In this document: in pieces, positions 13,459-61,830 of the stretch | Numbering within the stretch: position 1 is the stretch's first letter | Layout: the number at the start of each line of letters is the position of its first letter | Source: Anaerolineae bacterium | Lineage (GTDB): Bacteria > Chloroflexota > Anaerolineae > B4-G1 > SLSP01 | DNA: 64,000 nt | Assembly (NCBI GenBank): GCA_035347995.1 | Contig: DAOPQD010000005.1 | Span: forward strand, 6,433-70,432 | Reading direction: 5' to 3' | Notes under the pieces: generated by a model | Database searches by the model: none | Seen by the model: only the letters and a program-made list of their open reading frames with translations | Told to the model about the DNA's origin: nothing | Program-made: the position numbers and the translations under genes

Positions 13459-13659
13459 GCTGAAAGAATCAAATTTGTAATACGTACCGCCTTTGCCCCC
13501 TATCCCCTTCCCCCCGCGCGCGCGGGGGGAAGGGGACTTTTTTGCCCCCTTATTTTTTCTCCCCCTCCCCAGTGCGTGCACTGGGGAGGGGCAAAAACTA
13601 CCGGTCACAAAGGTTCGTCCATTGCCGTCTGGATAGTTGACGCCAGGTTGAACAGTTAC
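13459..13659 (+). repeat. copy 1 of a ~200-250-bp structured intergenic repeat element made of modular GC-rich hairpins each followed by T-runs
   Basis: It shares its start (gctgaa(a)gaatcaa), a body (tttgccccctatcccc, the palindrome ccccttccccccgcgcgc(gc)ggggggaagggg + T-run, ttattttttctccccctcccca-loop-tggggagggg) and a tail (acaaaggttcRtccatYgccgtc...cgccaggYtgaacagtYac) with the copy at 47836-48085. Confidence 0.8.
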
Positions 13660-39867: not shown

Positions 39868-40559
39868 TCAAGCCCCACACCATTCGCGGCGCAGGATGCC
39901 GTAGAGCACCATGTCGCCGACTTCCCCATCGCGGAACAGGAATTCGCGGAAAACGCCCTCGCGCCGGAAACCCAGGCGCTCGCAGTCTGTCGGAGCAAGA
40001 AATGCCATCCCTAAATTGGCGGATTTTTGCGGCAGAAGTGGGGCGCAAGGCCCGAACCAAAGGTTAAGATCGTGCTTGAGTGGGACAGCACTCCGCAAAA
40101 CGTGTTCTCCCCGACAGACTGCTCGTAGAGCGCGATTGCCGGCGCATTGTCGGCAAAGACGGTGAGCTGTACGCGGCGCAAATTGAGCTCGCGGAAGGCA
40201 AAATCCAGCCCCAGCGTCATCGCGGCATAGCCGTAGCCCTGCCCGCGATACCCCGGCTCGCCGATGCCCAGGCTGATCCAACCGGTGCCATGATTCCAGA
40301 AAATGCCGTCCACTTCCAGGTAGCCGATGAGCGCGTCGTTTTCCAGAAGCCGCACCGCAAACGGGAACGCCGTCGGCGATTGTTGCTGCTCCTCGATGTA
40401 CTTGATCACCTCGGCGACGGTTTTGGGCATCGCCGGGGAGGCGTCATACCGGCGCATGAAGTCCGCGTCCTCATACCAGCGGGCGATGAGCGGATAATCT
40501 GCCGGGGTCACTGCCGCCAGCCGTACCCGCTCATCGCGCAGGAGGGGGACACAGCTCAT
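39868..40559 (-). pseudogene. RimJ/RimL-type GNAT N-acetyltransferase gene interrupted by a 139-bp MITE insertion (frameshift and premature stop)
   Basis: The N-terminal ORF (frame A) runs from MSCVPLL... to ...AIALYEQ and then reads into the insert. The C-terminal ORF (frame B) resumes ...ERLGFRREGVFREFLFRDGEVGDMVLYGILRREW. Deleting 39983-40121 plus one CTCG restores a contiguous ...AIALYERLGFRREG... Confidence 0.8.
39983..40121. mobile_element. miniature inverted-repeat transposable element (139 bp) with 13-15 bp terminal inverted repeats CAGTCTGTCGG(A/G)G and a 4-bp target-site duplication (CTCG on the plus strand)
   Basis: Left end cagtctgtcggag (39983-39995); right end ctccccgacagactg (40107-40121). 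Flanking ctcg at 39979-39982 and 40122-40125. Confidence 0.8.
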
Positions 40560-41402: not shown

Positions 41403-41894
41403 TCAATGTTGACGCAGAAACTGACCCAGGTCAGGGTTCTGCTGAATGGCAAAATTTCCATGCCCGAAGGCGTGCAGCAATCTCCGCGATTGAGGGCTGT
41501 GAAATTGGGGAGCAGAGCCGCGCGTGCAAATATACGCCTTCCAAGTCGTTTGTTGTCGAAGCGGTTGAGCATGATTAGCGTTGAAATGCGGCGCAAGCGA
41601 TTGCAGCGTGTTGATGACTTGCTCGATGGCATGCGTGATATCGCTTCCCTTCAGCTCTACAATGCAAATGGTAGTGGACGCGCTTCCCTCAGGCGTGTAG
41701 AAAACCAATAGATCGCTCAAGGCGCCGCAGATGTGCAGTTCGGCACGCAAGGCACAGGGACGATTTGTCTGATCGTCAATGGCAAACCATTTCCAAGTCT
41801 CACCCTGGCGCGGGGTAACGCGCACGACAATACCTCTTTCTCTGTAAGCATTTCCTGGGTGCCGACAGCGTTCGCGCATGGTTGAACAAGGCAT
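41403..41894 (-). CDS. hypothetical protein of 163 aa, translationally coupled partner of the AAA_21-type ATPase; low-GC islet gene
   Basis: ORF MPCSTMRERCRHPGNAYRERGIVVRVTPRQGETWKWFAIDDQ...IVELKGSDITHAIEQV... No motif recognisable by eye. GC is about 52% against about 65% in the flanks. Confidence 0.5.
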   Translation of the reverse strand: MPCSTMRERCRHPGNAYRERGIVVRVTPRQGETWKWFAIDDQTNRPCALRAELHICGALSDLLVFYTPEGSASTTICIVELKGSDITHAIEQVINTLQSLAPHFNANHAQPLRQQTTWKAYICTRGSAPQFHSPQSRRLLHAFGHGNFAIQQNPDLGQFLRQH

Positions 41895-41896
41895 CG

Positions 41897-43315
41897 TTAC
41901 TCAACCGCTCCCACAACATCAAGGACATCAAAATAAATTTGAGAAATACGGTCAGAAACCCGCCCAAAAGTGCCCCAGTCAATATCGCCCTGTTCATCCA
42001 GAATGCTGTGCGCGGTCCCCTTCTCAAAAAGGTAAACCGCAACTTGTGCCTGTGAGAGTAAGGCCGCCTCACGTTTCAGGAAGAAATGCTCAGCGGCTTC
42101 AGCAGGTCTTGGATGGCGTGCACCGGCTATCAGGTTGGCCAGGTGATCCACCACATACGGGCTATGGGTAGTGGCCATCACATTGATCCCGGCATTGACC
42201 ATCATGCCGAGGAATTCCACTAACCGTACCTGGGCTTCCGGATGAAGATTCATTTCGGGTTCATCAATCACCACTAAATCGCCTTCAGTGGCCAAATACC
42301 GCAGATAAAATACCAGCGGCGCCAATTCTTTGACCGCTGAAGAGGCTGCATTGATACCCAATGCCCCGCCAGGAATCGAGAAATGGATGCGTCGTTCGAT
42401 ACTTGGCTCCGGAGTGGAAAAGTCAACCTTTCCCCCCAATAAGTCATGTTCCAAAATTTCGGCAAGCCGCAGGTATTCGTTGATCTCAGGCTCTTGGCGC
42501 GCCTGCTGTTCCCGTTGAACGCGCGTGCCAGTCAAAAGAGCGGTCGTCATCCACCCCTGGTAAATAGTAATAGGAAAATTCACCATGGTGCGTTTTAGAT
42601 TCTCTGTCAAATCCGCATAAGATTGCATAGTCGAGCCATACCCAGGCAAGCCCCGCAATAATTGTCCAACTTGTTCTAACTGGGGGAAAAAACCACTACG
42701 TTCTGTGGGAAACGGCCAAACGAAGGCATATAAACAACGGTGTAACGCGGCAAAGATATTTCGGGCCACAAATTCACGGATGATGGTAGGATGTAGATTC
42801 GAGGCTTCGCCTTCGGTGTAAAAGTACAACGTTGTATTGCCAGTTTCTTTTAGCGCGCGCAAAACACCGCCGACCTGGTCTTTGACTTTCAGCTCAGCTA
42901 ATTTGTCCCATTTTTCTGAAGTATAATCTACTGTGACTTGTAGCTGTGTTTGTTTGAAATTGGTAACTGGCGCGCCAATCACGGTTGGGAGCCAATCTTG
43001 AGCAAGTCTGGCAATGCCGTCAAAGTACATCTCCCCATAGCGTTCCGCAAACGTCAATAAATCAACCTGAGAATTTCCTTTTCTTGATAATTCTTCAATA
43101 ATAGTTTCTATAACAGGATAATTCTCTGAAGTTTTTTGTTCTTTGAACGCATTTAAGTATTCTAACCAGCCATAACCGAATAGCCCCAGAAGGTTAGCAA
43201 TGGCATTTGCGGTCCAGGTTTTTCCCGCATTGCTAGGGCCAACAAAAATCGTCAGTGGGCGCAGTGCTATCTCGGCGTTTTCAACCGGGCCTAAATTTCT
43301 AATACTTATTTTCAT
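41897..43315 (-). CDS. AAA_15/AAA_21-family ABC-like ATPase (OLD/PtuA/AbiLi-like), candidate defence-system ATPase
   Basis: 472-aa ORF with Walker A GPSNAGKT, a Walker B/D-loop block VVIDEPEMNLHP, an H-loop TTHSPYVVD and an AT-rich sequence. It starts 14 nt after the mutS stop. Confidence 0.7.
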   Translation of the reverse strand: MKISIRNLGPVENAEIALRPLTIFVGPSNAGKTWTANAIANLLGLFGYGWLEYLNAFKEQKTSENYPVIETIIEELSRKGNSQVDLLTFAERYGEMYFDGIARLAQDWLPTVIGAPVTNFKQTQLQVTVDYTSEKWDKLAELKVKDQVGGVLRALKETGNTTLYFYTEGEASNLHPTIIREFVARNIFAALHRCLYAFVWPFPTERSGFFPQLEQVGQLLRGLPGYGSTMQSYADLTENLKRTMVNFPITIYQGWMTTALLTGTRVQREQQARQEPEINEYLRLAEILEHDLLGGKVDFSTPEPSIERRIHFSIPGGALGINAASSAVKELAPLVFYLRYLATEGDLVVIDEPEMNLHPEAQVRLVEFLGMMVNAGINVMATTHSPYVVDHLANLIAGARHPRPAEAAEHFFLKREAALLSQAQVAVYLFEKGTAHSILDEQGDIDWGTFGRVSDRISQIYFDVLDVVGAVE

Positions 43316-47835: not shown

Positions 47836-48085
47836 GCTGAAGATTGAGAATCAACTTTTGCCCCCTATCCCCTGGCCCCTTCCCCCCGCGCGCGGGGGGA
47901 AGGGGAACTTTTTTTGTGGGGTTTTGCAGGCGGGCTACGCCCGCCTGCAAAACCCCTTATTTTTTCTCCCCCTCCCCAACGGCGCAAACGCCGTTGGGGA
48001 GGGGGCAGGGGGTGGGGCAAAAGCTACAGCTTACAAAGGTTCATCCATCGCCGTCGAGCTACCTGGCGCCAGGCTGAACAGTCAC
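47836..48085 (+). repeat. copy 2 of the structured intergenic hairpin repeat element, carrying an extra 40-nt hairpin module; its last bases supply the stop codon of the pentapeptide-repeat gene
   Basis: See the copy at 13459-13659. The additional module is ggggttttgcaggcgggc-tac-gcccgcctgcaaaacccc. Confidence 0.8.
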
Positions 48086-54190: not shown

Positions 54191-55666
54191 ATGGGCCTCT
54201 GGGAAGCATATTACACCGCCACCAGCGTCGAAGAAGCGGTGCGCCTGCTCGCCGAGTATGGGGAGCGCGCGCGCATCGTCGCCGGCGGCACCGATTTGCT
54301 CATCGAGATCGAGCATCAGACGCGCACGCCTGCCGTGCTCATTGACATCACCCGCATTGGCGGATTGGACGAGCTCCGCCTGCGGGATGACGGCCTCATC
54401 CATCTGGGACCGATGGTGACGCACGCGCAGGCAGCCGCCTCGCCACTGCTCCAGGAGCACGCCCTGCCGCTGGCCCAGGCCTGTTGGGGGGTCGGCGCGC
54501 CGGCGCTCCGCAACCGGGGCACCCTCGCCGGGAATCTGGTCACCGCCTCGCCGGCCAACGATACCATCACCGCGCTCCGTGCCCTCGACGCCCATGTCAC
54601 CCTGCGAAGTGCGCACGGCGAACGGCAGGTCCCCCTCGCCGATTTCTACACCGGCGTGCGGCGTACCATCATGGAACCCGAAGAGCTGCTCGTAGGGATC
54701 AGCTTTAAGCCCCTCAAAGAGTCGTATCAAGGGATTTATCTCAAGCTGGGACTGCGGCGCGTCCTTGCCATTGCCGTCACGAATGTCGCCATCGTGCTCG
54801 GCCTCGAGGGAGAACGGGTGAGCGAAGCGCGCCTGGCGCTGGGGAGCGTCGCCCCCACCATCATCCGCGCGCCTGAAGCCGAAGCAGCGCTGCACGGACA
54901 GCCGCTGGATGAAGCGCACATCGCCCAGGCGGCGGAGCTGGCAGCGCAAGCCGCACGGCCCATTGATGACGTGCGCGGCTCCGCCTGGTTCCGCAAGGAA
55001 GAGGTGGCCGCGCTGGTCCGGCGGGGCCTGCAGGCCCTGGCGCGCCATGAACCGCGACTCGACCTGCCCCAACCCGAAACGATGCCGCTGTTGTGGGGCA
55101 AATCCCGCTGCCGTCCGCGACTGGCCGGCCCCACGATCGCCCATCACAGCGAGGGCGAGGAGCCCATCCAGTTCACCGTCAACGGTGAGAATGTCGCCGT
55201 GCGCGGCGCCAACGGCACCACCCTGCTGCATCTCCTGCGCGATGACCTGGGACTCACGGGCACCAAAGTCGGCTGCGAGGAGGGCGAATGCGGCGCCTGC
55301 ACCGTCTGGATGGACGGCGTCGCCGTGCTGGCGTGTCTTACCCCCGCGCCGAGAGCGCACGGGACCAACATCGTCACCATCGAGGGGCTCTCCAAAGGCG
55401 AGTCCCGGCATCCCGTCCAGGAGGCTTTTGTGGAGGAAGACGCCGTCCAGTGCGGCTATTGCACGCCGGGCTTCGTGATGAGCGCCGCGAAGCTATTGGA
55501 AGAACGTCCGCATCCCAGCCGGGAGCAAATTGTCGCCGCCCTCAGTGGCAATCTCTGCCGCTGCACGGGCTACTACAAGATCATCACCGCTGTGGAAAAC
55601 GCCAGCCGGCAACTAAGCGAGAAGCGAGCAGACGCCAGCGATGAAACGCACAGTGCCGACAGTTGA
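54191..55666 (+). CDS. xanthine dehydrogenase/CO dehydrogenase family fused FAD-binding + [2Fe-2S] subunit (FAD domain N-terminal)
   Basis: FAD-binding ARIVAGGTDLLIE...; C-terminal ferredoxin GCEEGECGACTV...CGYCTPGFVMS...NLCRCTGY. Confidence 0.85.
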   Translation: MGLWEAYYTATSVEEAVRLLAEYGERARIVAGGTDLLIEIEHQTRTPAVLIDITRIGGLDELRLRDDGLIHLGPMVTHAQAAASPLLQEHALPLAQACWGVGAPALRNRGTLAGNLVTASPANDTITALRALDAHVTLRSAHGERQVPLADFYTGVRRTIMEPEELLVGISFKPLKESYQGIYLKLGLRRVLAIAVTNVAIVLGLEGERVSEARLALGSVAPTIIRAPEAEAALHGQPLDEAHIAQAAELAAQAARPIDDVRGSAWFRKEEVAALVRRGLQALARHEPRLDLPQPETMPLLWGKSRCRPRLAGPTIAHHSEGEEPIQFTVNGENVAVRGANGTTLLHLLRDDLGLTGTKVGCEEGECGACTVWMDGVAVLACLTPAPRAHGTNIVTIEGLSKGESRHPVQEAFVEEDAVQCGYCTPGFVMSAAKLLEERPHPSREQIVAALSGNLCRCTGYYKIITAVENASRQLSEKRADASDETHSADS

Positions 55667-57371
55667 CGCGGATCGCATCAACCTCTACCTGCGAACCTAC
55701 TATTCCCTGCTCCGCACTACCGAGGAGGTGCAAATCCGCACGCTGGAAGAGACGCACACCTCGCTGCACTCCATCCTGCACCAGGGAGCCAGGGAGATGG
55801 CGGTGGATATGTCCGCCTTCATCTACAGCGGCCTGCGCCTCCCTCAATGCATTCGGGACACCCGGTTGATCGTGTTGGGACAGACCGAGGAGGTTTTTCG
55901 GCGCCGCGGCTTCGCCGACTTCAGCTCCTGGACGCCGGTGTCGGCGCCGGGGCGCCGGCGCCGGATGCTCTACGACGGCAAAGAGACCCTCGCCGCCTTC
56001 ATCGCCAGCATCTCCGACGTGGATGACCTCATTCCCATCCTCGTCGCCTTTCAGATCGAATGGAATAAGATTCACCTGCTGATCACGCAGGCGGGATTGC
56101 AGGGGCGTGTGGCCGCCTGGGCGGAAACAAGAGCCGCCGACACCACATTGAACGAAGAGCTGCAGAAGGCGCTGGGCATCACCGCCGAAGAGTGGGAACG
56201 GCTCACGCGCGTCTGGGGCGCCGACCTGCCAGGATTCCTGGCGGACATCGCCGCACGCCGCAAACGGATGGCCGTGCGGCTTCTCGCCGGTTCGTATGTG
56301 GATTACCGACGCGCGACGCAGCGATGGTGGTGGCACGTGAGCGACAACGCTCCCATTGACCTGCAAGACCGGGACGTCTACTTCGTCTCCAGCAACACGC
56401 ACAGCCTGACCAACATGCTCACCGGTTTCGCCCAACGGCACGAGCAGCTGCTCATGGATTACATCGCCCATTGCGGCGACGTCGAGCTGCAGACAGAGGC
56501 GCACCACATCCAGCAGGGGGTCGTCCGCAGCAATTGGGCGAATTTCCTCTACTACGTGCTCAAGAAGTACCTGGCGACCCCAGAGGGCGCGGCCTTGTCG
56601 CAGGAACGCAAAGAATATGAAGCGGCTCACGGCGTCACCCGCATCCCCAGCAGCCAGACCTTCGACCTCGAGGCGCAGGTGATTGAGCTGGCGCGCCTCG
56701 ACCCGCAAGTGGTAGATCGGCGACTGCGGGATTTGCCGCTGGAACGCCTGGCGGACAGCAAATCCGTCATCCTCAACATTGATTATCCGTTGGGATTTGC
56801 CGCCTATCATTTGCTCTCGCGCATCGTGGCGAACGTGGGCGACCTGCGCGGCCTCTACGTCATCGGCAAAGCCGCCACGCTCAACGCGCGCATCGGCGAT
56901 GTGTTGATCCCCAACGTGGTCTATGACGAGCATTCGCACAATACCTATCTTTTCAACAATGTTTTCACGGCCACGGATGTGGCGTGCTATGCCGTCTACG
57001 GGGACGTGCTCGACAATCAACGCGCGCTGACGGTGTGGGGGACTTTCCTGCAGACCGAAGCCTACATGAAGGGCTTCCTCGACGCCGGCTACACCGACGC
57101 AGAAATGGAAGCCGGGCCCTATCTCTCGGCGGTCTACGAATTCATCCGCCCGCGCCGCTATCCTACCGATGAAGTGGTCAATCTGTACCGCACGCCCTTC
57201 GAGATCGGCATCCTGCACTACGCCTCGGACACGCCCATCAGCAAGGGACAGAACCTGGGCGCGCAGAATCTCTCGTACTACGGCATGGATCCGACGTATG
57301 CGGCGACGGTGGCCGTGCTGCGCCGCATCTTCACTCTGGAAACGGCGGACTTGCCCCGAGCCGACAAATAA
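55641..57371 (+). CDS. AMP nucleosidase-like protein (N-terminal regulatory-type domain + C-terminal PNP/UDP-fold catalytic domain)
   Basis: The C-terminal half aligns with E. coli Amn: LNIDYPLGFA / VNIGVGPSNA, IGDVLIPNVVYDEH / IGDYVLAHAYLRDDH, DAEMEAGPY / AVDMESATI. Confidence 0.65.
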   Translation: MKRTVPTVDADRINLYLRTYYSLLRTTEEVQIRTLEETHTSLHSILHQGAREMAVDMSAFIYSGLRLPQCIRDTRLIVLGQTEEVFRRRGFADFSSWTPVSAPGRRRRMLYDGKETLAAFIASISDVDDLIPILVAFQIEWNKIHLLITQAGLQGRVAAWAETRAADTTLNEELQKALGITAEEWERLTRVWGADLPGFLADIAARRKRMAVRLLAGSYVDYRRATQRWWWHVSDNAPIDLQDRDVYFVSSNTHSLTNMLTGFAQRHEQLLMDYIAHCGDVELQTEAHHIQQGVVRSNWANFLYYVLKKYLATPEGAALSQERKEYEAAHGVTRIPSSQTFDLEAQVIELARLDPQVVDRRLRDLPLERLADSKSVILNIDYPLGFAAYHLLSRIVANVGDLRGLYVIGKAATLNARIGDVLIPNVVYDEHSHNTYLFNNVFTATDVACYAVYGDVLDNQRALTVWGTFLQTEAYMKGFLDAGYTDAEMEAGPYLSAVYEFIRPRRYPTDEVVNLYRTPFEIGILHYASDTPISKGQNLGAQNLSYYGMDPTYAATVAVLRRIFTLETADLPRADK

Positions 57372-57401
57372 TCTACCGGGTGACTTACACAGGAGTACGC
57401 G

Positions 57402-59648
57402 ATGAAAAAAACTTACGTTGGTGAAGCGCATCCCCGCATTGACGGCCTCGCCAAGGTCACGGGGCAGGCACCCTATTCCGGCGATTTCAACATGGAGGGC
57501 CAGCTGCACATGAAACTGCGCTTCGCCGGCCGCCCGCACGCGCGGGTGCTCGGCGTGGACGCCAGCAAGGCCCTGGCTGTGCCCGGCGTTGTCGCGGTCT
57601 TCACCTCACGGGATGTGCCCGTGAACGAATACGGCCTGCAATATCCCGATCAACCGGTGCTGTGCGGCCCTGGCGATCCCAAAGAGGGCACCGATATCGC
57701 TCGTTTTGTGGGCGATCAAATCGCGGCGGTGGTCGCGGAGACCGAAGAAGCCGCGGCCAGGGGACGCGATCTCCTCGAGGTGGACTTCGAGGAGTTGCCG
57801 GCCGTGACCGATCCGCGCGCCGCGCTGGAACCGGGTGCGCCCATCCTGCACCCCGCCTACCCCGGCACCCCCATCCACCCGGAGCTGATCTTCGAGGGCA
57901 ACCTCGCCTCGCGGCATCGCATCCGGCGGGGCGATGTAGACGCCGCCTGGGATCAGGCCGCTGTCATCGTCGAATCGGACTACGAGATTCCGGGGCAGGA
58001 GCACGCCTTCCTGCAGCCTGAAGCGGCGCTCGCTTACATAGATGAAGCGGGGCGCGTGACTATCATCGCCAGCACGCAATGGATTCACGAGGACCGCCGT
58101 CAGATCGCGCACGCGCTGGGGCTGCCCGAAGAGCAGGTGCGGATCATTCTGCCTGCCATTGGCGGCGCTTTTGGGGGCAAAGAAGACCTCTCCGTGCAGA
58201 TCGTCGCCGCGCTGGCCGCGATGAAATTGCAACGTCCCGTCAAAATCGTGTGGACGCGGCGCGAGTCCATCATCGGACATCACAAACGCCATCATGTCTT
58301 TGCCCGCGCGCGCTGGGCGGCGGATGCCGAAGGGCGACTTCTGGCCGCCGAGACCCAGGTCGTCGCCGACGCCGGCGCTTACGTGTACACCACCAACAAG
58401 GTCCTGGGCAATCTGTTGCTCACCGTCAACGGCGCCTACCGCATCCCGAACGTCAAGACCGAGGTGCTGGGAATCTACACCAACAACGTGCCGGGCGGCG
58501 CTTTCCGGGGCTTCGGCGCGCCGCAGGGCAATTTCATCGCCGAATCGCAGATGAACAAACTGGCCGAGGCTCTGGGACTCGATCCGGTGGAAATCCGCCT
58601 GCGCAATCTCGTCCATGACGGCGACCCGATGCCGTGGGGCAAACCGCTCCCCGATGACGGGCGCGGGCTGGAGGAAAGCCTCCTCGCGGCGGCGCGAGCG
58701 CTGGGCTGGGAACAAACGCCGCAGGGCTGGCGCGCTCCCCGGGTCGAGCCGCGCCCCGGCGATCCACCCACCCGGCGGCGGGGGGTGGGGATCGCCCTGG
58801 CGTTCAAAAACGTGGGGTTTTCCTTCGGCTATCAGGAAAATGCCTGGGCCGCCATCGAATTGCGCGGCGATGCCGAGATCGAAAGCGCGACCGTCTTCGC
58901 CGCCAGCGCCGATGTGGGACAGGGAACGCGCACGGTGATCCGACAGATGGCAGCGGAGGCGTTGGGAGTTCCCATCGAGCGTGTCGAGGTGGCCGCCGCC
59001 GATAGCGCGATCACCCAAAGCTCCGGCTCCTGCTCCGCCTCGCGGATGACGTTTATGATCGGCAATGCAGTCCGGGGGGCGGCGGCCGCGGCGCTGGAGA
59101 AATGGCGCGCGGAGGAACGTCCCGCCAGGGCTGAAGTCACCTATCTCGCGCCGCAGACTACGCCCATTGATCCGCTGACCGGCTACGGACATCCCAATTT
59201 CTCGTATGGCTACGTCGCTCTCGGCGTGGACCTCAGCATTGACACGGAGACGGGGGAGCTGCACGTGGCCAAAGTCGCCTGCGCCAACGATGTCGGACAG
59301 GCGATCAATCCCCGGCTGGTGCAAGGGCAAATCGAGGGCGGGGTCATCCAGGCGCTGGGCTGGACCACCACGGAGCACTTCATCGAGAAAGACGGCCGGC
59401 CGCTCACCGATTCGCTCAGCACGTATCTGATTCCCACCATCGCCGATATTCCCGATCAGCTAGAGACGCTCATCCTCGAGAATCCAGAACCCAACGGTCC
59501 GTGGGGCGCTCGCGGCATGGGGGAGATGCCCTTCATCCCAATGGCAGCGGCCATGCATCAGGCAGTGCATGAGGCGACGGGCGTCTGGTACAACCGCTTC
59601 CCCTTCAACGCCGAGCGGATTTTGCGCGGAATTAAGGGGATCTATTGA
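57402..59648 (+). CDS. xanthine dehydrogenase family molybdopterin-binding large subunit
   Basis: 748-aa ORF with Ald_Xan_dh_C-type blocks ...GGAFGGKE...GGAFRGFGAPQGNFIAE... Confidence 0.9.
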   Translation: MKKTYVGEAHPRIDGLAKVTGQAPYSGDFNMEGQLHMKLRFAGRPHARVLGVDASKALAVPGVVAVFTSRDVPVNEYGLQYPDQPVLCGPGDPKEGTDIARFVGDQIAAVVAETEEAAARGRDLLEVDFEELPAVTDPRAALEPGAPILHPAYPGTPIHPELIFEGNLASRHRIRRGDVDAAWDQAAVIVESDYEIPGQEHAFLQPEAALAYIDEAGRVTIIASTQWIHEDRRQIAHALGLPEEQVRIILPAIGGAFGGKEDLSVQIVAALAAMKLQRPVKIVWTRRESIIGHHKRHHVFARARWAADAEGRLLAAETQVVADAGAYVYTTNKVLGNLLLTVNGAYRIPNVKTEVLGIYTNNVPGGAFRGFGAPQGNFIAESQMNKLAEALGLDPVEIRLRNLVHDGDPMPWGKPLPDDGRGLEESLLAAARALGWEQTPQGWRAPRVEPRPGDPPTRRRGVGIALAFKNVGFSFGYQENAWAAIELRGDAEIESATVFAASADVGQGTRTVIRQMAAEALGVPIERVEVAAADSAITQSSGSCSASRMTFMIGNAVRGAAAAALEKWRAEERPARAEVTYLAPQTTPIDPLTGYGHPNFSYGYVALGVDLSIDTETGELHVAKVACANDVGQAINPRLVQGQIEGGVIQALGWTTTEHFIEKDGRPLTDSLSTYLIPTIADIPDQLETLILENPEPNGPWGARGMGEMPFIPMAAAMHQAVHEATGVWYNRFPFNAERILRGIKGIY

Positions 59649-59668: not shown

Positions 59669-61078
59669 ATGTATCTCAAAAAAATCCGATTAAAAAACAT
59701 CAAATGTTTCTCGGATATCACCCTGGATTTTTCACCGGAGGGACAGCCGCGGCTTTGGACTGTGATTCTCGGACAGAACGGATTAGGCAAAAGCACCTTG
59801 CTTCAAGCTATTGGCATTGTATTGGCCGGCCCCATAGCTATACGTGAATTGCTCCCTGTAGCCGAAGGATGGGTGAAACGCGACTGCCCCTATGGAGAGA
59901 TTGAAGCCGAGCTTTTGTGGACCGAAGGCGATGCACAAATTCCAAAATGGCCCAAAAAAACGCCCTACACTGTAAAATACGCCATAGTTGGTGAAGATAT
60001 AGACAATGGAAGCCTGCCTTCTAATCTGGCGTCACAATATACTGGCGTTCCAATTGTGACAGAATGGGCGGGGGACGGCATTTCTAAAAAACAGGAAAAT
60101 ATTTCTAAGGATTTGAATCGCCTGAGACAGACAGCCTACGCGGAGGGAAAGACCGGCTGGCTGGGGTGCGGATATGGACCTTTCAGGCGTTTGAGTGGCG
60201 GAGCACAGAATGCAGATAGAATTTTGTATTCTGGTAGAAAATCTGCCCGCTTCATCACCTTATTCAGAGAAGACGCAGCCCTCACAAATGCCACCGAGTG
60301 GCTAATCTCACTCTACAACACCGGGCGAGATGGAAATGAATTAAGCCAGCGGACCTTGAGACAGGTAAAACGAATTTTCGAAGCCGAATTCTTACCTCGC
60401 CCTGCAGAATTGTTAGTAAATGCTCAATCAGCGCTTCTAAGGATTGAGGGACATAATCCGGTTCCTTTTCGAGACTTGAGTGATGGATATCGAAGTATGC
60501 TGGCGATGGGGATTGACCTGCTAAGATGGGTTAGCGTAGCTTTTCCAGAAAAAGAAGATCTCATGGAGGTCGCTGGGGTAGTGGTCATTGATGAACTCGA
60601 TGCCCATGCCCATCCCGCATGGCAACGTGAGATCGGCCATTGGCTACGACGAAAATTTCCAAAATTACAATTTATCATTGCAACCCATAGTCCTTTTTTG
60701 GCACAAGTCGCAGATGAACCCGGCGGGAATATTGTTTTAGTCCAGACCGAAGCAGGGGTACAAAAACGCGATGATGTGGAACTGGTTGAAGCCTGGCGAG
60801 CAGACCAAATTCTTACAGATCTTATGGAATTAAACTCTACTCGCTCACCAGAAGTGGATCGAAAAATCCATAAACTCAATGAATTAAGTCAAAAACGGGA
60901 AGCATTAGAGCAAAAACAGGAAAGGCTCCCCCCAGCACAAGAGGATGAATACCAACAACTCAGACTATGGGTTGAACAACTCCCGCCAGCCATTGAGGAT
61001 CCATGGCAACGGCGGCAGGCAGAAAGGGTTCAACAAGAAATCGCCCAAGCGCTTCCACAACTAGAGGAGCTTGAATGA
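59669..61078 (+). CDS. ptuA: Septu-type PtuA-like AAA_15/21 ATPase (low-GC islet)
   Basis: Walker A GQNGLGKST, Walker B VVVIDELDAHAHP, H-loop ATHSPFL, C-terminal coiled coil. GC is about 45%. Confidence 0.7.
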   Translation: MYLKKIRLKNIKCFSDITLDFSPEGQPRLWTVILGQNGLGKSTLLQAIGIVLAGPIAIRELLPVAEGWVKRDCPYGEIEAELLWTEGDAQIPKWPKKTPYTVKYAIVGEDIDNGSLPSNLASQYTGVPIVTEWAGDGISKKQENISKDLNRLRQTAYAEGKTGWLGCGYGPFRRLSGGAQNADRILYSGRKSARFITLFREDAALTNATEWLISLYNTGRDGNELSQRTLRQVKRIFEAEFLPRPAELLVNAQSALLRIEGHNPVPFRDLSDGYRSMLAMGIDLLRWVSVAFPEKEDLMEVAGVVVIDELDAHAHPAWQREIGHWLRRKFPKLQFIIATHSPFLAQVADEPGGNIVLVQTEAGVQKRDDVELVEAWRADQILTDLMELNSTRSPEVDRKIHKLNELSQKREALEQKQERLPPAQEDEYQQLRLWVEQLPPAIEDPWQRRQAERVQQEIAQALPQLEELE

Positions 61079-61830
61079 TAAAAGTTCGCCGTGGGCCACA
61101 ACCGGAAGGATTTCATGAACGAGCGATTAGCTGGCAAACTCGCTTTGAGCAAGAGCGAGAAAGTAATCCTTCGCTTACCATCACAAGATTCTGGGACAGA
61201 ATCCGAAATGAAATCCGCGCAGATGCAGAGCACCTATATCATGTTTCGCATGGGAAATGTGCTTTCTGTGAAAGTTACATGGCTGATGTATCTACCCCAC
61301 ACATAGAACACTATCGCCCCAAGAGCAAATTTCCGGAGCTGGCATTCGTTTGGGACAACTGGTTACTGTCATGCCAATGCTGCAATGGCAAAAAATGGGG
61401 ACACTTTCCAATATGTGAAGATCTGCCATGTTTGATAGATCCTGGAAATGAAGATCCAGAAATGCACATAACCTTCGAAGGATACACTCCAATCTCAAAA
61501 ACACCGCGTGGCGAAAAAACGATTGAATTGCTCGGGTTAAGACGAAGTCCCCTGGAAGACGAACGTAGCCGATGGTTAAACTATGTCAGCATATTATTGC
61601 TGAGCTGGTGTAATACTAAAGATTCAATGCTAAAAGACGAAATACGCGAGCTGCTTATCTGGGCCATGCAAGATGAGGCGCCATACGCCGCAATGACACG
61701 CTGCTTCTTGCAAAAGTATGCCCCGCGATTGGCTTCAAAAGCACATCCCCCTGTAACCTGCCCCAGGCCCTTGATGCGTATTCAAGAGCTAGTTGAACAA
61801 TGGAGTCATGAATTCGTTGGACTCGAGTGA
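61075..61830 (+). CDS. ptuB: Septu-type PtuB-like HNH endonuclease
   Basis: CAFCESYMADVSTPHIEHYRPKS...NWLLSCQCCNGKKWGHFP (C-x2-C, EH, N-W, C-x2-C-N). It overlaps the ptuA stop. Confidence 0.7.
   Translation: MIKVRRGPQPEGFHERAISWQTRFEQERESNPSLTITRFWDRIRNEIRADAEHLYHVSHGKCAFCESYMADVSTPHIEHYRPKSKFPELAFVWDNWLLSCQCCNGKKWGHFPICEDLPCLIDPGNEDPEMHITFEGYTPISKTPRGEKTIELLGLRRSPLEDERSRWLNYVSILLLSWCNTKDSMLKDEIRELLIWAMQDEAPYAAMTRCFLQKYAPRLASKAHPPVTCPRPLMRIQELVEQWSHEFVGLE

Follow-up and report, generated by a model that had tools for sequence, protein, structure and literature searches.

A short non-coding element interrupts a gene for a GNAT-family acetyltransferase in a 64,000-nucleotide stretch of DNA from an uncultured Anaerolineae bacterium (contig DAOPQD010000005.1, positions 6,433 to 70,432), to which we refer in the following as the window. 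We regard it as highly probable that this element is a miniature inverted-repeat transposable element (MITE), inserted into the acetyltransferase gene and belonging to a family that shares its ends, CAGTCTGTCGG(A...), with a subgroup of the insertion sequences (IS) of the IS1182 family. The original prediction, a reading of the letters of the window, had placed a 139-bp MITE with a CTCG duplication in this gene and had stated that its removal restores the reading frame; all of its coordinates hold, and excision of 143 bp indeed recovers a frame of 182 codons. The case rests on an unoccupied allele of the same site in a sister lineage, on 68 elements with the same ends in other genomes, and on complete, transposase-encoding elements that carry these ends as well.

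The element is bounded by CAGTCTGTCGGAG on the left and by CTCCCCGACAGACTG on the right. Its terminal inverted repeats (TIRs) are perfectly complementary over 11 of 11 bp (CAGTCTGTCGG and CCGACAGACTG); beyond this, their likeness is partial, extending to 13–15 bp, and degenerate when compared with the 17-bp consensus of related copies. Compared with the consensus of the Chloroflexota copies, one TIR carries a single substitution and the other a 2-bp insertion (Table 1). The G+C content of the element is 54.7%, as against 63.6% in the flanking gene. Its terminal 11-mer has no further occurrence within the window, even with one mismatch allowed; the count of two is by itself unremarkable, as two or more occurrences were also obtained in 38 of 100 shuffles. 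Among 5.8 billion protein clusters, the six-frame peptides of the element match just the read-through product of its own locus, and no other protein contains any of its reading frames.

The interrupted gene is read on the minus strand, from an ATG at 40559 to a stop codon at 39868–39870. Excision of the element together with one CTCG yields a single open reading frame (ORF) of 549 nt, whose product begins with MSCVPLL, continues through ...AIALYERLGFRREGVF... and ends with WCGA before the stop; across the junction it reads ...NAPAIALYERLGFRREGVFREF... The insertion point lies after codon 146 of 182, and the frame is shifted because 143 bp is not a multiple of three. In consequence, the last 36 native residues are exchanged for 36 residues encoded by the element. 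This present ORF ends within the element at a TAG (40013–40011), which is followed, after 2 nt, by an ATG (40008–40006) in frame with the native 3′ part. The resulting 46-codon ORF has been predicted as a gene on several related contigs, by several pipelines.

The restored protein matches the Pfam models PF13302 (Acetyltransf_3) with 78 bits (cut-off 25.4) and PF00583 with 59.7 bits. It had originally been described as ‘RimL-type’, and it is indeed a GNAT protein of the Acetyltransf_3 family. It stays, however, well below the cut-offs of the curated equivalog models RimJ (PRK10809; 41 versus 190 bits), PseH (48 versus 93) and SpeG (43 versus 218). As no NCBIfam equivalog cut-off is reached, ‘RimL-type’ should be read as a loose family label.

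Table 1. Features of the interrupted acetyltransferase locus (window coordinates; a dot denotes no strand)
Feature	Position	Strand	Basis
Element, interpreted as an IS1182-associated MITE of the ‘CAGTCTGTCGG’ family	39983..40121	.	Anatomy, empty-site alleles, 68 elements sharing ends
Left TIR: CAGTCTGTCGG perfect, then AG; extra CA after position 13 relative to the Chloroflexota-type consensus CAGTCTGTCGGAGAGAA	39983..39995	+	
Right TIR: reads CAGTCTGTCGGGGAG on the minus strand; A to G at position 12 relative to the consensus	40107..40121	-	
Target-site duplication, left copy: CTCG on the plus strand, CGAG on the gene strand	39979..39982	.	Empty site with a single CGAG
Target-site duplication, right copy: CTCG	40122..40125	.	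Empty site with a single CGAG
GNAT gene, 5′ native segment: codons 1–146, through ...AIALYE	40122..40559	-	Orthologue alignments
GNAT gene, 3′ native segment: codons 147–182 and stop, RLGFRREGVF...WCGA; out of frame with the 5′ segment	39868..39978	-	
Present ORF: 146 native residues and a 36-residue tail from the element, QSVGENTF...NPPI, 182 residues; publicly annotated as ‘GNAT family protein’	40011..40559	-	
Second ORF, with its ATG inside the element: MAFLAPTDC, duplicated E146 and native residues 147–182, 46 residues	39868..40008	-	

The decisive evidence is comparative. Intact alleles came to light among the proteins that cluster with the truncated one at 90% identity: three of them (P0127, P0133 and P0134) retain the native C-terminus. 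Their contigs, which come from sister strains (L154 and L157) and are 97.9–98.3% identical to the window over 856 aligned bases, encode an uninterrupted GNAT protein and represent the empty site that the original prediction had proposed to look for. On the gene strand, they read GCGCTCTA-CGAG-CGCCTGGG, with one CGAG and no element, whereas the window reads GCGCTCTA-CGAG-[139 bp]-CGAG-CGCCTGGG. The 4-bp duplication is therefore real, since the unoccupied site in the sister lineage has a single copy. The gene order is the same as in the window: a GreA-like gene, a 132-residue ORF, the GNAT gene, a spacer of 92 nt and ruvB. Two more distant orthologues in a syntenic setting (L113 and L114; 78–81% protein identity; MutS, GreA-like gene, 132-residue ORF, GNAT) are likewise uninterrupted. 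An equivalent in-frame insertion in orthologous genes would have spoken for an ancient insertion or deletion; it was found neither in these two nor in 10 further orthologous proteins.

The occupied allele is widespread. An identical RuvB protein is encoded on 20 public contigs, and the element sits at the same place, 99.3–100% identical, on all 10 of the RuvB-bearing contigs that we fetched (four from metagenome-assembled genomes (MAGs) at NCBI, three from Joint Genome Institute (JGI) metagenomes and three from Logan assemblies). As these contigs are independent and stem from different samples, an assembly artefact is excluded. The 182-residue acetyltransferase annotated in these carriers is the product of the read-through ORF, which continues past codon 146 into the sequence of the element. 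Among the matches listed, about 60 contigs are on record for carrier proteins and nine for intact alleles; 15 contigs were read for two of the intact alleles. The host goes by the name ‘Chloroflexi bacterium ADurb.Bin222’ in one NCBI record and by ‘Anaerolineae bacterium’ in others. Some carriers (L003, L006 and L007) also show an in-frame 6-bp deletion at 40233–40238, which removes one GY of the GQGYGYA acetyl-CoA-binding loop and accounts for the 180-residue variants in public records.

The search for further copies, which had been suggested as a check, was positive at the level of the family. A scan of 596 Gb, in which each species was represented by one genome, for CAGTCTGTCGG followed, after 100–130 bases, by CCGACAGACTG gave 68 places in other genomes, with elements of 120–150 bp, where about 1–2 would be expected by chance (596 Gb × 31 spacings / 4^22). 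Copies are most numerous in the MAG ‘bacterium Yes70-08’ (about 30, of 137 bp) and in a Phycisphaerales MAG (about 20, of 122 bp). The remaining matches come from Chloroflexota (five MAGs, including Thermoflexales), Hydrogenedentales, Alpha- and Gammaproteobacteria, Desulfovibrionaceae, Synergistaceae, Verrucomicrobia, Mycobacteriaceae and others; the host species of the window is not among the matches of this one-genome-per-species scan. Between genomes, conservation is confined to the terminal 11–17 bp (CAGTCTGTCGGACTTWG, or CAGTCTGTCGGAGAGAA in Chloroflexota), while the interiors are unrelated. The closest relative of the window copy, a 139-bp element in a Thermoflexales MAG, shows 76% identity to it over 63 bp. 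A literature search with the 11-mer gave unrelated primer sequences only.

The sequences flanking these 68 elements are informative about the target. CTAG stands on both sides of 33 of them; CTCG/CGAG, as in the window, is second commonest with seven, followed by GATC with three and by TTAA, CTAA, CTAC and CAAG with one each. In the other 21, the two sides are unequal, usually by one base. The non-palindromic flanks imply that all 4 bp are duplicated and not merely a central TA. Two side observations concern the arrangement of copies. In a Chloroflexota MAG (DAIMXP010000069.1; L077:4815-5335), two MITEs of this family, each 149 bp long, are separated by 223 bp, and CTCG flanks at least one of them. 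Furthermore, in L019, L038, L044, L051 and other loci of Phycisphaerales and Hydrogenedentales, many copies lie no more than some 10 bases from the point where a contig ends; MITE copies evidently break these short-read assemblies, so that copy numbers in those MAGs are underestimated.

A parent IS with matching TIRs, the other proposed check, was likewise found at the level of the family. The 68 loci themselves contain none, and the single extra repeat-like matches in them are chance matches inside ordinary genes. Scans of viral contigs also returned mostly chance matches for single repeats, together with two real element ends, in L092 and L101. With these two ends as a degenerate probe, a scan of metagenomes yielded 30 loci, 13 of which hold complete elements of 1584–1615 bp with CTAG on both sides, every one at a different site. 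These marine elements begin with CAGTCTGTCGGACTT... at one end and finish with ...CCGACAG(G/A)CTG at the other. An intact copy (L124) encodes a protein of 451 residues that scores 390.6 bits against the NCBIfam model NF033551, ‘IS1182 family transposase’ (cut-off 270), and contains the Pfam domains DUF772, DDE_Tnp_1 and DDE_Tnp_1_6. The models for IS5, IS4 and ISNCY all remain far below their cut-offs for this protein (IS5: 65.9 versus 140 bits), and its homologues at NCBI bear the name ‘IS1182 family transposase’. The MITEs and these IS have 16–22 bp of each end in common, and nothing more.

Other searches along this line were less productive. An IS1182 copy with GGAGAGAA-type ends was sought in Chloroflexota and not found, a BLAST search of plasmids with the viral-contig ends and with an alphaproteobacterial MITE gave no useful match, and a BLAST search of E. 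coli genomes returned only ISKpn6. In one of the viral contigs (L092:1-69, minus strand), the repeat of the IS end is directly followed by a promoter-like pair, TTGACA ... TATGTT, and then by ATGAGTACACCACGG. The transposase gene apparently begins there, some 50 bp inside the terminus. IS701 and ISH3 were considered as parents for their 4–5-bp duplications and were dropped, as the partner transposase scored as IS1182; ISH3 ends in CRGT (PMC2266710).

DDE transposases bind the ends of their element and make staggered cuts in the target, and repair of the resulting gaps duplicates the target sequence. Applied to the present case, an IS1182-type DDE transposase encoded elsewhere would have bound both terminal repeats of the element and inserted it into a site resembling CTAG, in this gene CTCG, which departs from it by one base. 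The cuts would have had a 4-bp stagger, and filling of the gaps would then have duplicated these 4 bp. That the element was mobilised in trans in this host is suggested by the situation in other genomes. The unrelated interiors of the elements suggest that IS1182-type transposases need little beyond about 11–17 bp of end sequence.

What the insertion did to the enzyme can be judged from structure predictions with AlphaFold2. In an intact orthologue (P0002), the native C-terminus is predicted with high confidence (predicted local distance difference test (pLDDT) 91–96) and forms two long strands (residues 151–162 and 165–175). In the product encoded in the window, modelled from a comparable alignment, residues 1–146 mostly reach pLDDT values of 84–98 (79 in the first ten residues, 74 in residues 141–150), whereas the tail contributed by the element has values of 33–55. 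Since the lost native residues form two C-terminal β-strands of the core, the insertion most likely inactivated the enzyme. The pattern of codon differences fits a relaxed constraint on the severed 3′ piece: compared with the intact allele of L154, there are one non-synonymous and nine synonymous differences upstream of the insertion and four and none, respectively, downstream of it (Fisher p = 0.005); the same comparison with L157 gives p = 0.015.

The age of the insertion is bracketed by the two groups of strains. Carriers are 98.6–100% identical to each other over a 1-kb stretch (divergence up to 1.4%), and all have the insertion, with at most one single-nucleotide difference in the element. 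The insertion thus postdates the split from the sister lineage, which is about 2% divergent, and predates the diversification of the carrier clade, in which it is fixed. The original view that it is probably recent is therefore correct with regard to the sister split, but the event is older than the diversification of the strains that carry it. As to the earlier suggestion that the family is possibly still mobile, signs of present-day mobility in the host were not seen. A tblastn search with the IS1182 transposase found no match in the window or in loci L001–L114; Pfam detected no transposase domain in most window ORFs of 330 or more residues, nor in the gene calls around RuvB, and the window proteins so examined comprise only housekeeping and defence genes. 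Within the reach of these searches, the earlier statement that the window encodes no transposase holds. A second copy of the element was absent from 1.2 Mb of fetched DNA. These are weak negatives, as 64 kb of the host genome were covered. Less firmly, we infer that this copy is probably a stranded relic and not an active element.

Several observations weigh against the interpretation as an IS1182-mobilised MITE that broke the gene. In the 64 kb of host sequence read, there is neither an IS1182 transposase nor a second copy of this MITE subfamily. The TIRs of the window copy match for 11 bp only, as opposed to 17 bp or more in the multi-copy genomes, and CTCG is a minority target. The loss of GNAT function is deduced from predicted structures. 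Moreover, the 5′ part of the gene differs among carriers by four synonymous changes, one non-synonymous change and the in-frame 6-bp deletion, a pattern which, in these very small numbers, is unlike that of a long-dead pseudogene; and the four variable C-terminal positions vary among orthologues, too.

Another possibility is that the gene still works in two pieces, with the catalytic N-terminal residues 1–146 and their new tail on one chain, nine new residues and native residues 147–182, which hold the C-terminal β-hairpin, on another, produced by coupled translation and reassembled into an active split GNAT enzyme. The element does supply a stop and an ATG only 2 nt apart, and the second ORF retains the complete native C-terminus. 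If true, this would account for the fixation and wide occurrence of the carrier allele, for the mostly synonymous changes in the 5′ part (4:1) and for the absence of changes in the 111 nt of the 3′ fragment among carriers. Yet the internal ATG lacks a good Shine-Dalgarno sequence, the tail of the first fragment is predicted to be disordered, and the 3′ part differs from the intact allele by four amino-acid replacements and no synonymous change. Furthermore, the pattern is made up of very few changes and could also stem from recombination with intact alleles. To our knowledge, a split GNAT of this kind is without precedent, and we consider this explanation improbable.

Very little probability remains for a MITE moved by a transposase of another family, be it of the IS5 group or IS630/Tc1-like, the latter duplicating only the TA of CTAG. 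Elements of the IS5 group and MITEPsy1 do duplicate 4 bp at CTAG/YTAA (PMC3189936), the IS1182 transposase gives weak IS5 matches, and at targets of the form C-NN-G a 4-bp duplication looks the same as a 2-bp duplication in which each repeat is longer by one complementary base. However, the protein encoded by elements with exactly these ends passes the IS1182 cut-off and fails every IS5 cut-off, and the repeats of IS5-type elements (GGAAGGT...) differ from those seen here. Duplications of TTAG, GTAG, GATC and TTAA are necessarily of 4 bp, and the IS630-type reading, with a TA duplication inside CTAG, was ruled out by the non-palindromic 4-bp duplications. Hardly any credence can be given to a non-mobile origin, that is, to a lineage-specific insertion or deletion, an intron-like RNA element or an assembly artefact. 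The window does hold one copy only, its removal restores the frame as that of an intron would, and its RNA folds well (-53.3 kcal/mol, z = -3.8). This fold, however, consists mainly of the two terminal repeats pairing with each other, and Rfam has no match to the element locus at E <= 1, nor any in the whole window at gathering thresholds. The length of the insert is not a multiple of three, no orthologue has an equivalent insertion, and the same insertion recurs in the 10 independent assemblies. Taken together, the TIRs, the 4-bp duplication, the 68 relatives and the transposase-bearing partners form the signature of DDE transposition.

Several other features of the window deserve mention. 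The genes mutS and the GreA-like gene are separated by a two-gene block (41403–43315, minus strand), situated 1.3 kb upstream of the broken GNAT gene, that encodes a 472-residue AAA_15/AAA_21 ATPase (PADLOC PD-T4-4_A, 5e-49; PDC-M47A, 1e-46) and a 163-residue protein with a weak PDC-M29B match. It is absent from L113, L114 and L154 and present in L157 and all carriers, a patchy distribution that marks it as a variable defence islet. A Septu-type defence pair is found at 59669–61830 (plus strand): its 469-residue ATPase matches the PADLOC model of PtuA (5.7e-90), and the 251-residue ORF that overlaps it by 4 nt (61075–61830) is probably PtuB, given its HNH-like motifs HGKCAFCES, HIEHYRPKS and CQCCNGKKW. 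Two intergenic clusters of perfect, G+C-rich hairpins (13495–13600 and 47860–48010) have modules in common, TCCCCTTCCCCCCGCGC/GCGCGGGGGGAAGGGGA and, around a short variable core, CTCCCCCTCCCCA ... TGGGGAGGGG; ttgccccctatcccct stands ahead of each cluster, and a similar stretch, caaaggttc(g/a)tcca..., comes after it. The clusters look like modular palindromes of the type known as repetitive extragenic palindromes (REP) or bacterial interspersed mosaic elements (BIME). Lastly, a 576-residue DUF6909 protein (723 bits) is encoded at 54191–59648 (plus strand), between the FAD (flavin adenine dinucleotide)/2Fe-2S and the molybdopterin-binding subunits of an enzyme of the xanthine-dehydrogenase family.

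For annotation, our results imply that a protein publicly listed as ‘GNAT family protein’ ends in 36 residues of transposon read-through, and that its gene is most likely broken here and intact in the sister lineage. The locus could also act as a presence/absence marker that separates two populations in the public metagenome assemblies sampled. More generally, the 11-bp terminus CAGTCTGTCGG, together with a CTAG-type duplication, defines MITEs and IS1182 elements from Chloroflexota and Planctomycetota to Proteobacteria and Synergistota, which is useful for the annotation of MITEs in MAGs, where their copies break assemblies. The understanding of transposition itself is unchanged by these results: the insertion event is ordinary, and IS1182-derived MITEs with 4-bp repeats have been published before.

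The published example is MITEPye1 of Paracoccus yeei, an element of 159 bp with 4-bp direct repeats and 18-bp TIRs like those of the IS1182-family element ISPye18 (ISfinder; PMC11578231). It is present in few copies and has been proposed to be mobilised in trans by IS1182 transposases (PMC11578231). By description, the two are alike in being short and non-coding and in having 4-bp direct repeats and IS1182-like ends. They differ in that MITEPye1 is intergenic in an alphaproteobacterium, whereas the element in the window is intragenic in an Anaerolineae bacterium.

Among the IS1182 elements themselves, ends of the form CAGnnTGTCGG are found in ISAzo1 (Aromatoleum aromaticum EbN1), in plasmid copies from Marinobacter sp. 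M3C, Methylobacter and Komagataeibacter, and in the marine elements (L121–L141). At the left junction of the annotated elements, which were read from plasmids in cultured bacteria, CTAG is followed by CAGCGTGTCGGACT in ISAzo1, by CAGTCTGTCGGGCTT in the Marinobacter plasmid copy (1603 bp), by GAGTCTGTCGGACTT in the Methylobacter copy and by CAGCCTGTCGGGTTGGG (CAGCCTGTCGGG) in the Komagataeibacter copy. The 11-mer of the window element recurs unchanged in the marine elements and, in the Marinobacter copy, at the left end; the 4-bp duplication and the preference for CTAG are shared likewise. The IS1182 elements are, however, 1.5–1.6 kb long with a transposase of 450 residues, whereas the window element measures 139 bp and has the terminal 11–13 bp in common with them. 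ISKpn6, also an IS1182 member, has the same CTAG flanks but different ends (CTAG followed by GAGCCTGCGCGG).

A parallel for the effect on a gene is MITEPsy1 of Pseudomonas syringae pv. phaseolicola, a 100-nt element that duplicates 4 nt at CTAG/YTAA and one insertion of which gave rise to a new avrPphE effector allele (PMC3189936). In both cases, the element plus its duplication is not a multiple of three, so that the reading frame changes. The repeats of MITEPsy1, GGAAGGTCTGAAAAAGCC, point to a different parent, the IS5-family element ISPsy2, and its transposition has been shown experimentally, whereas the element described here is known from sequence.

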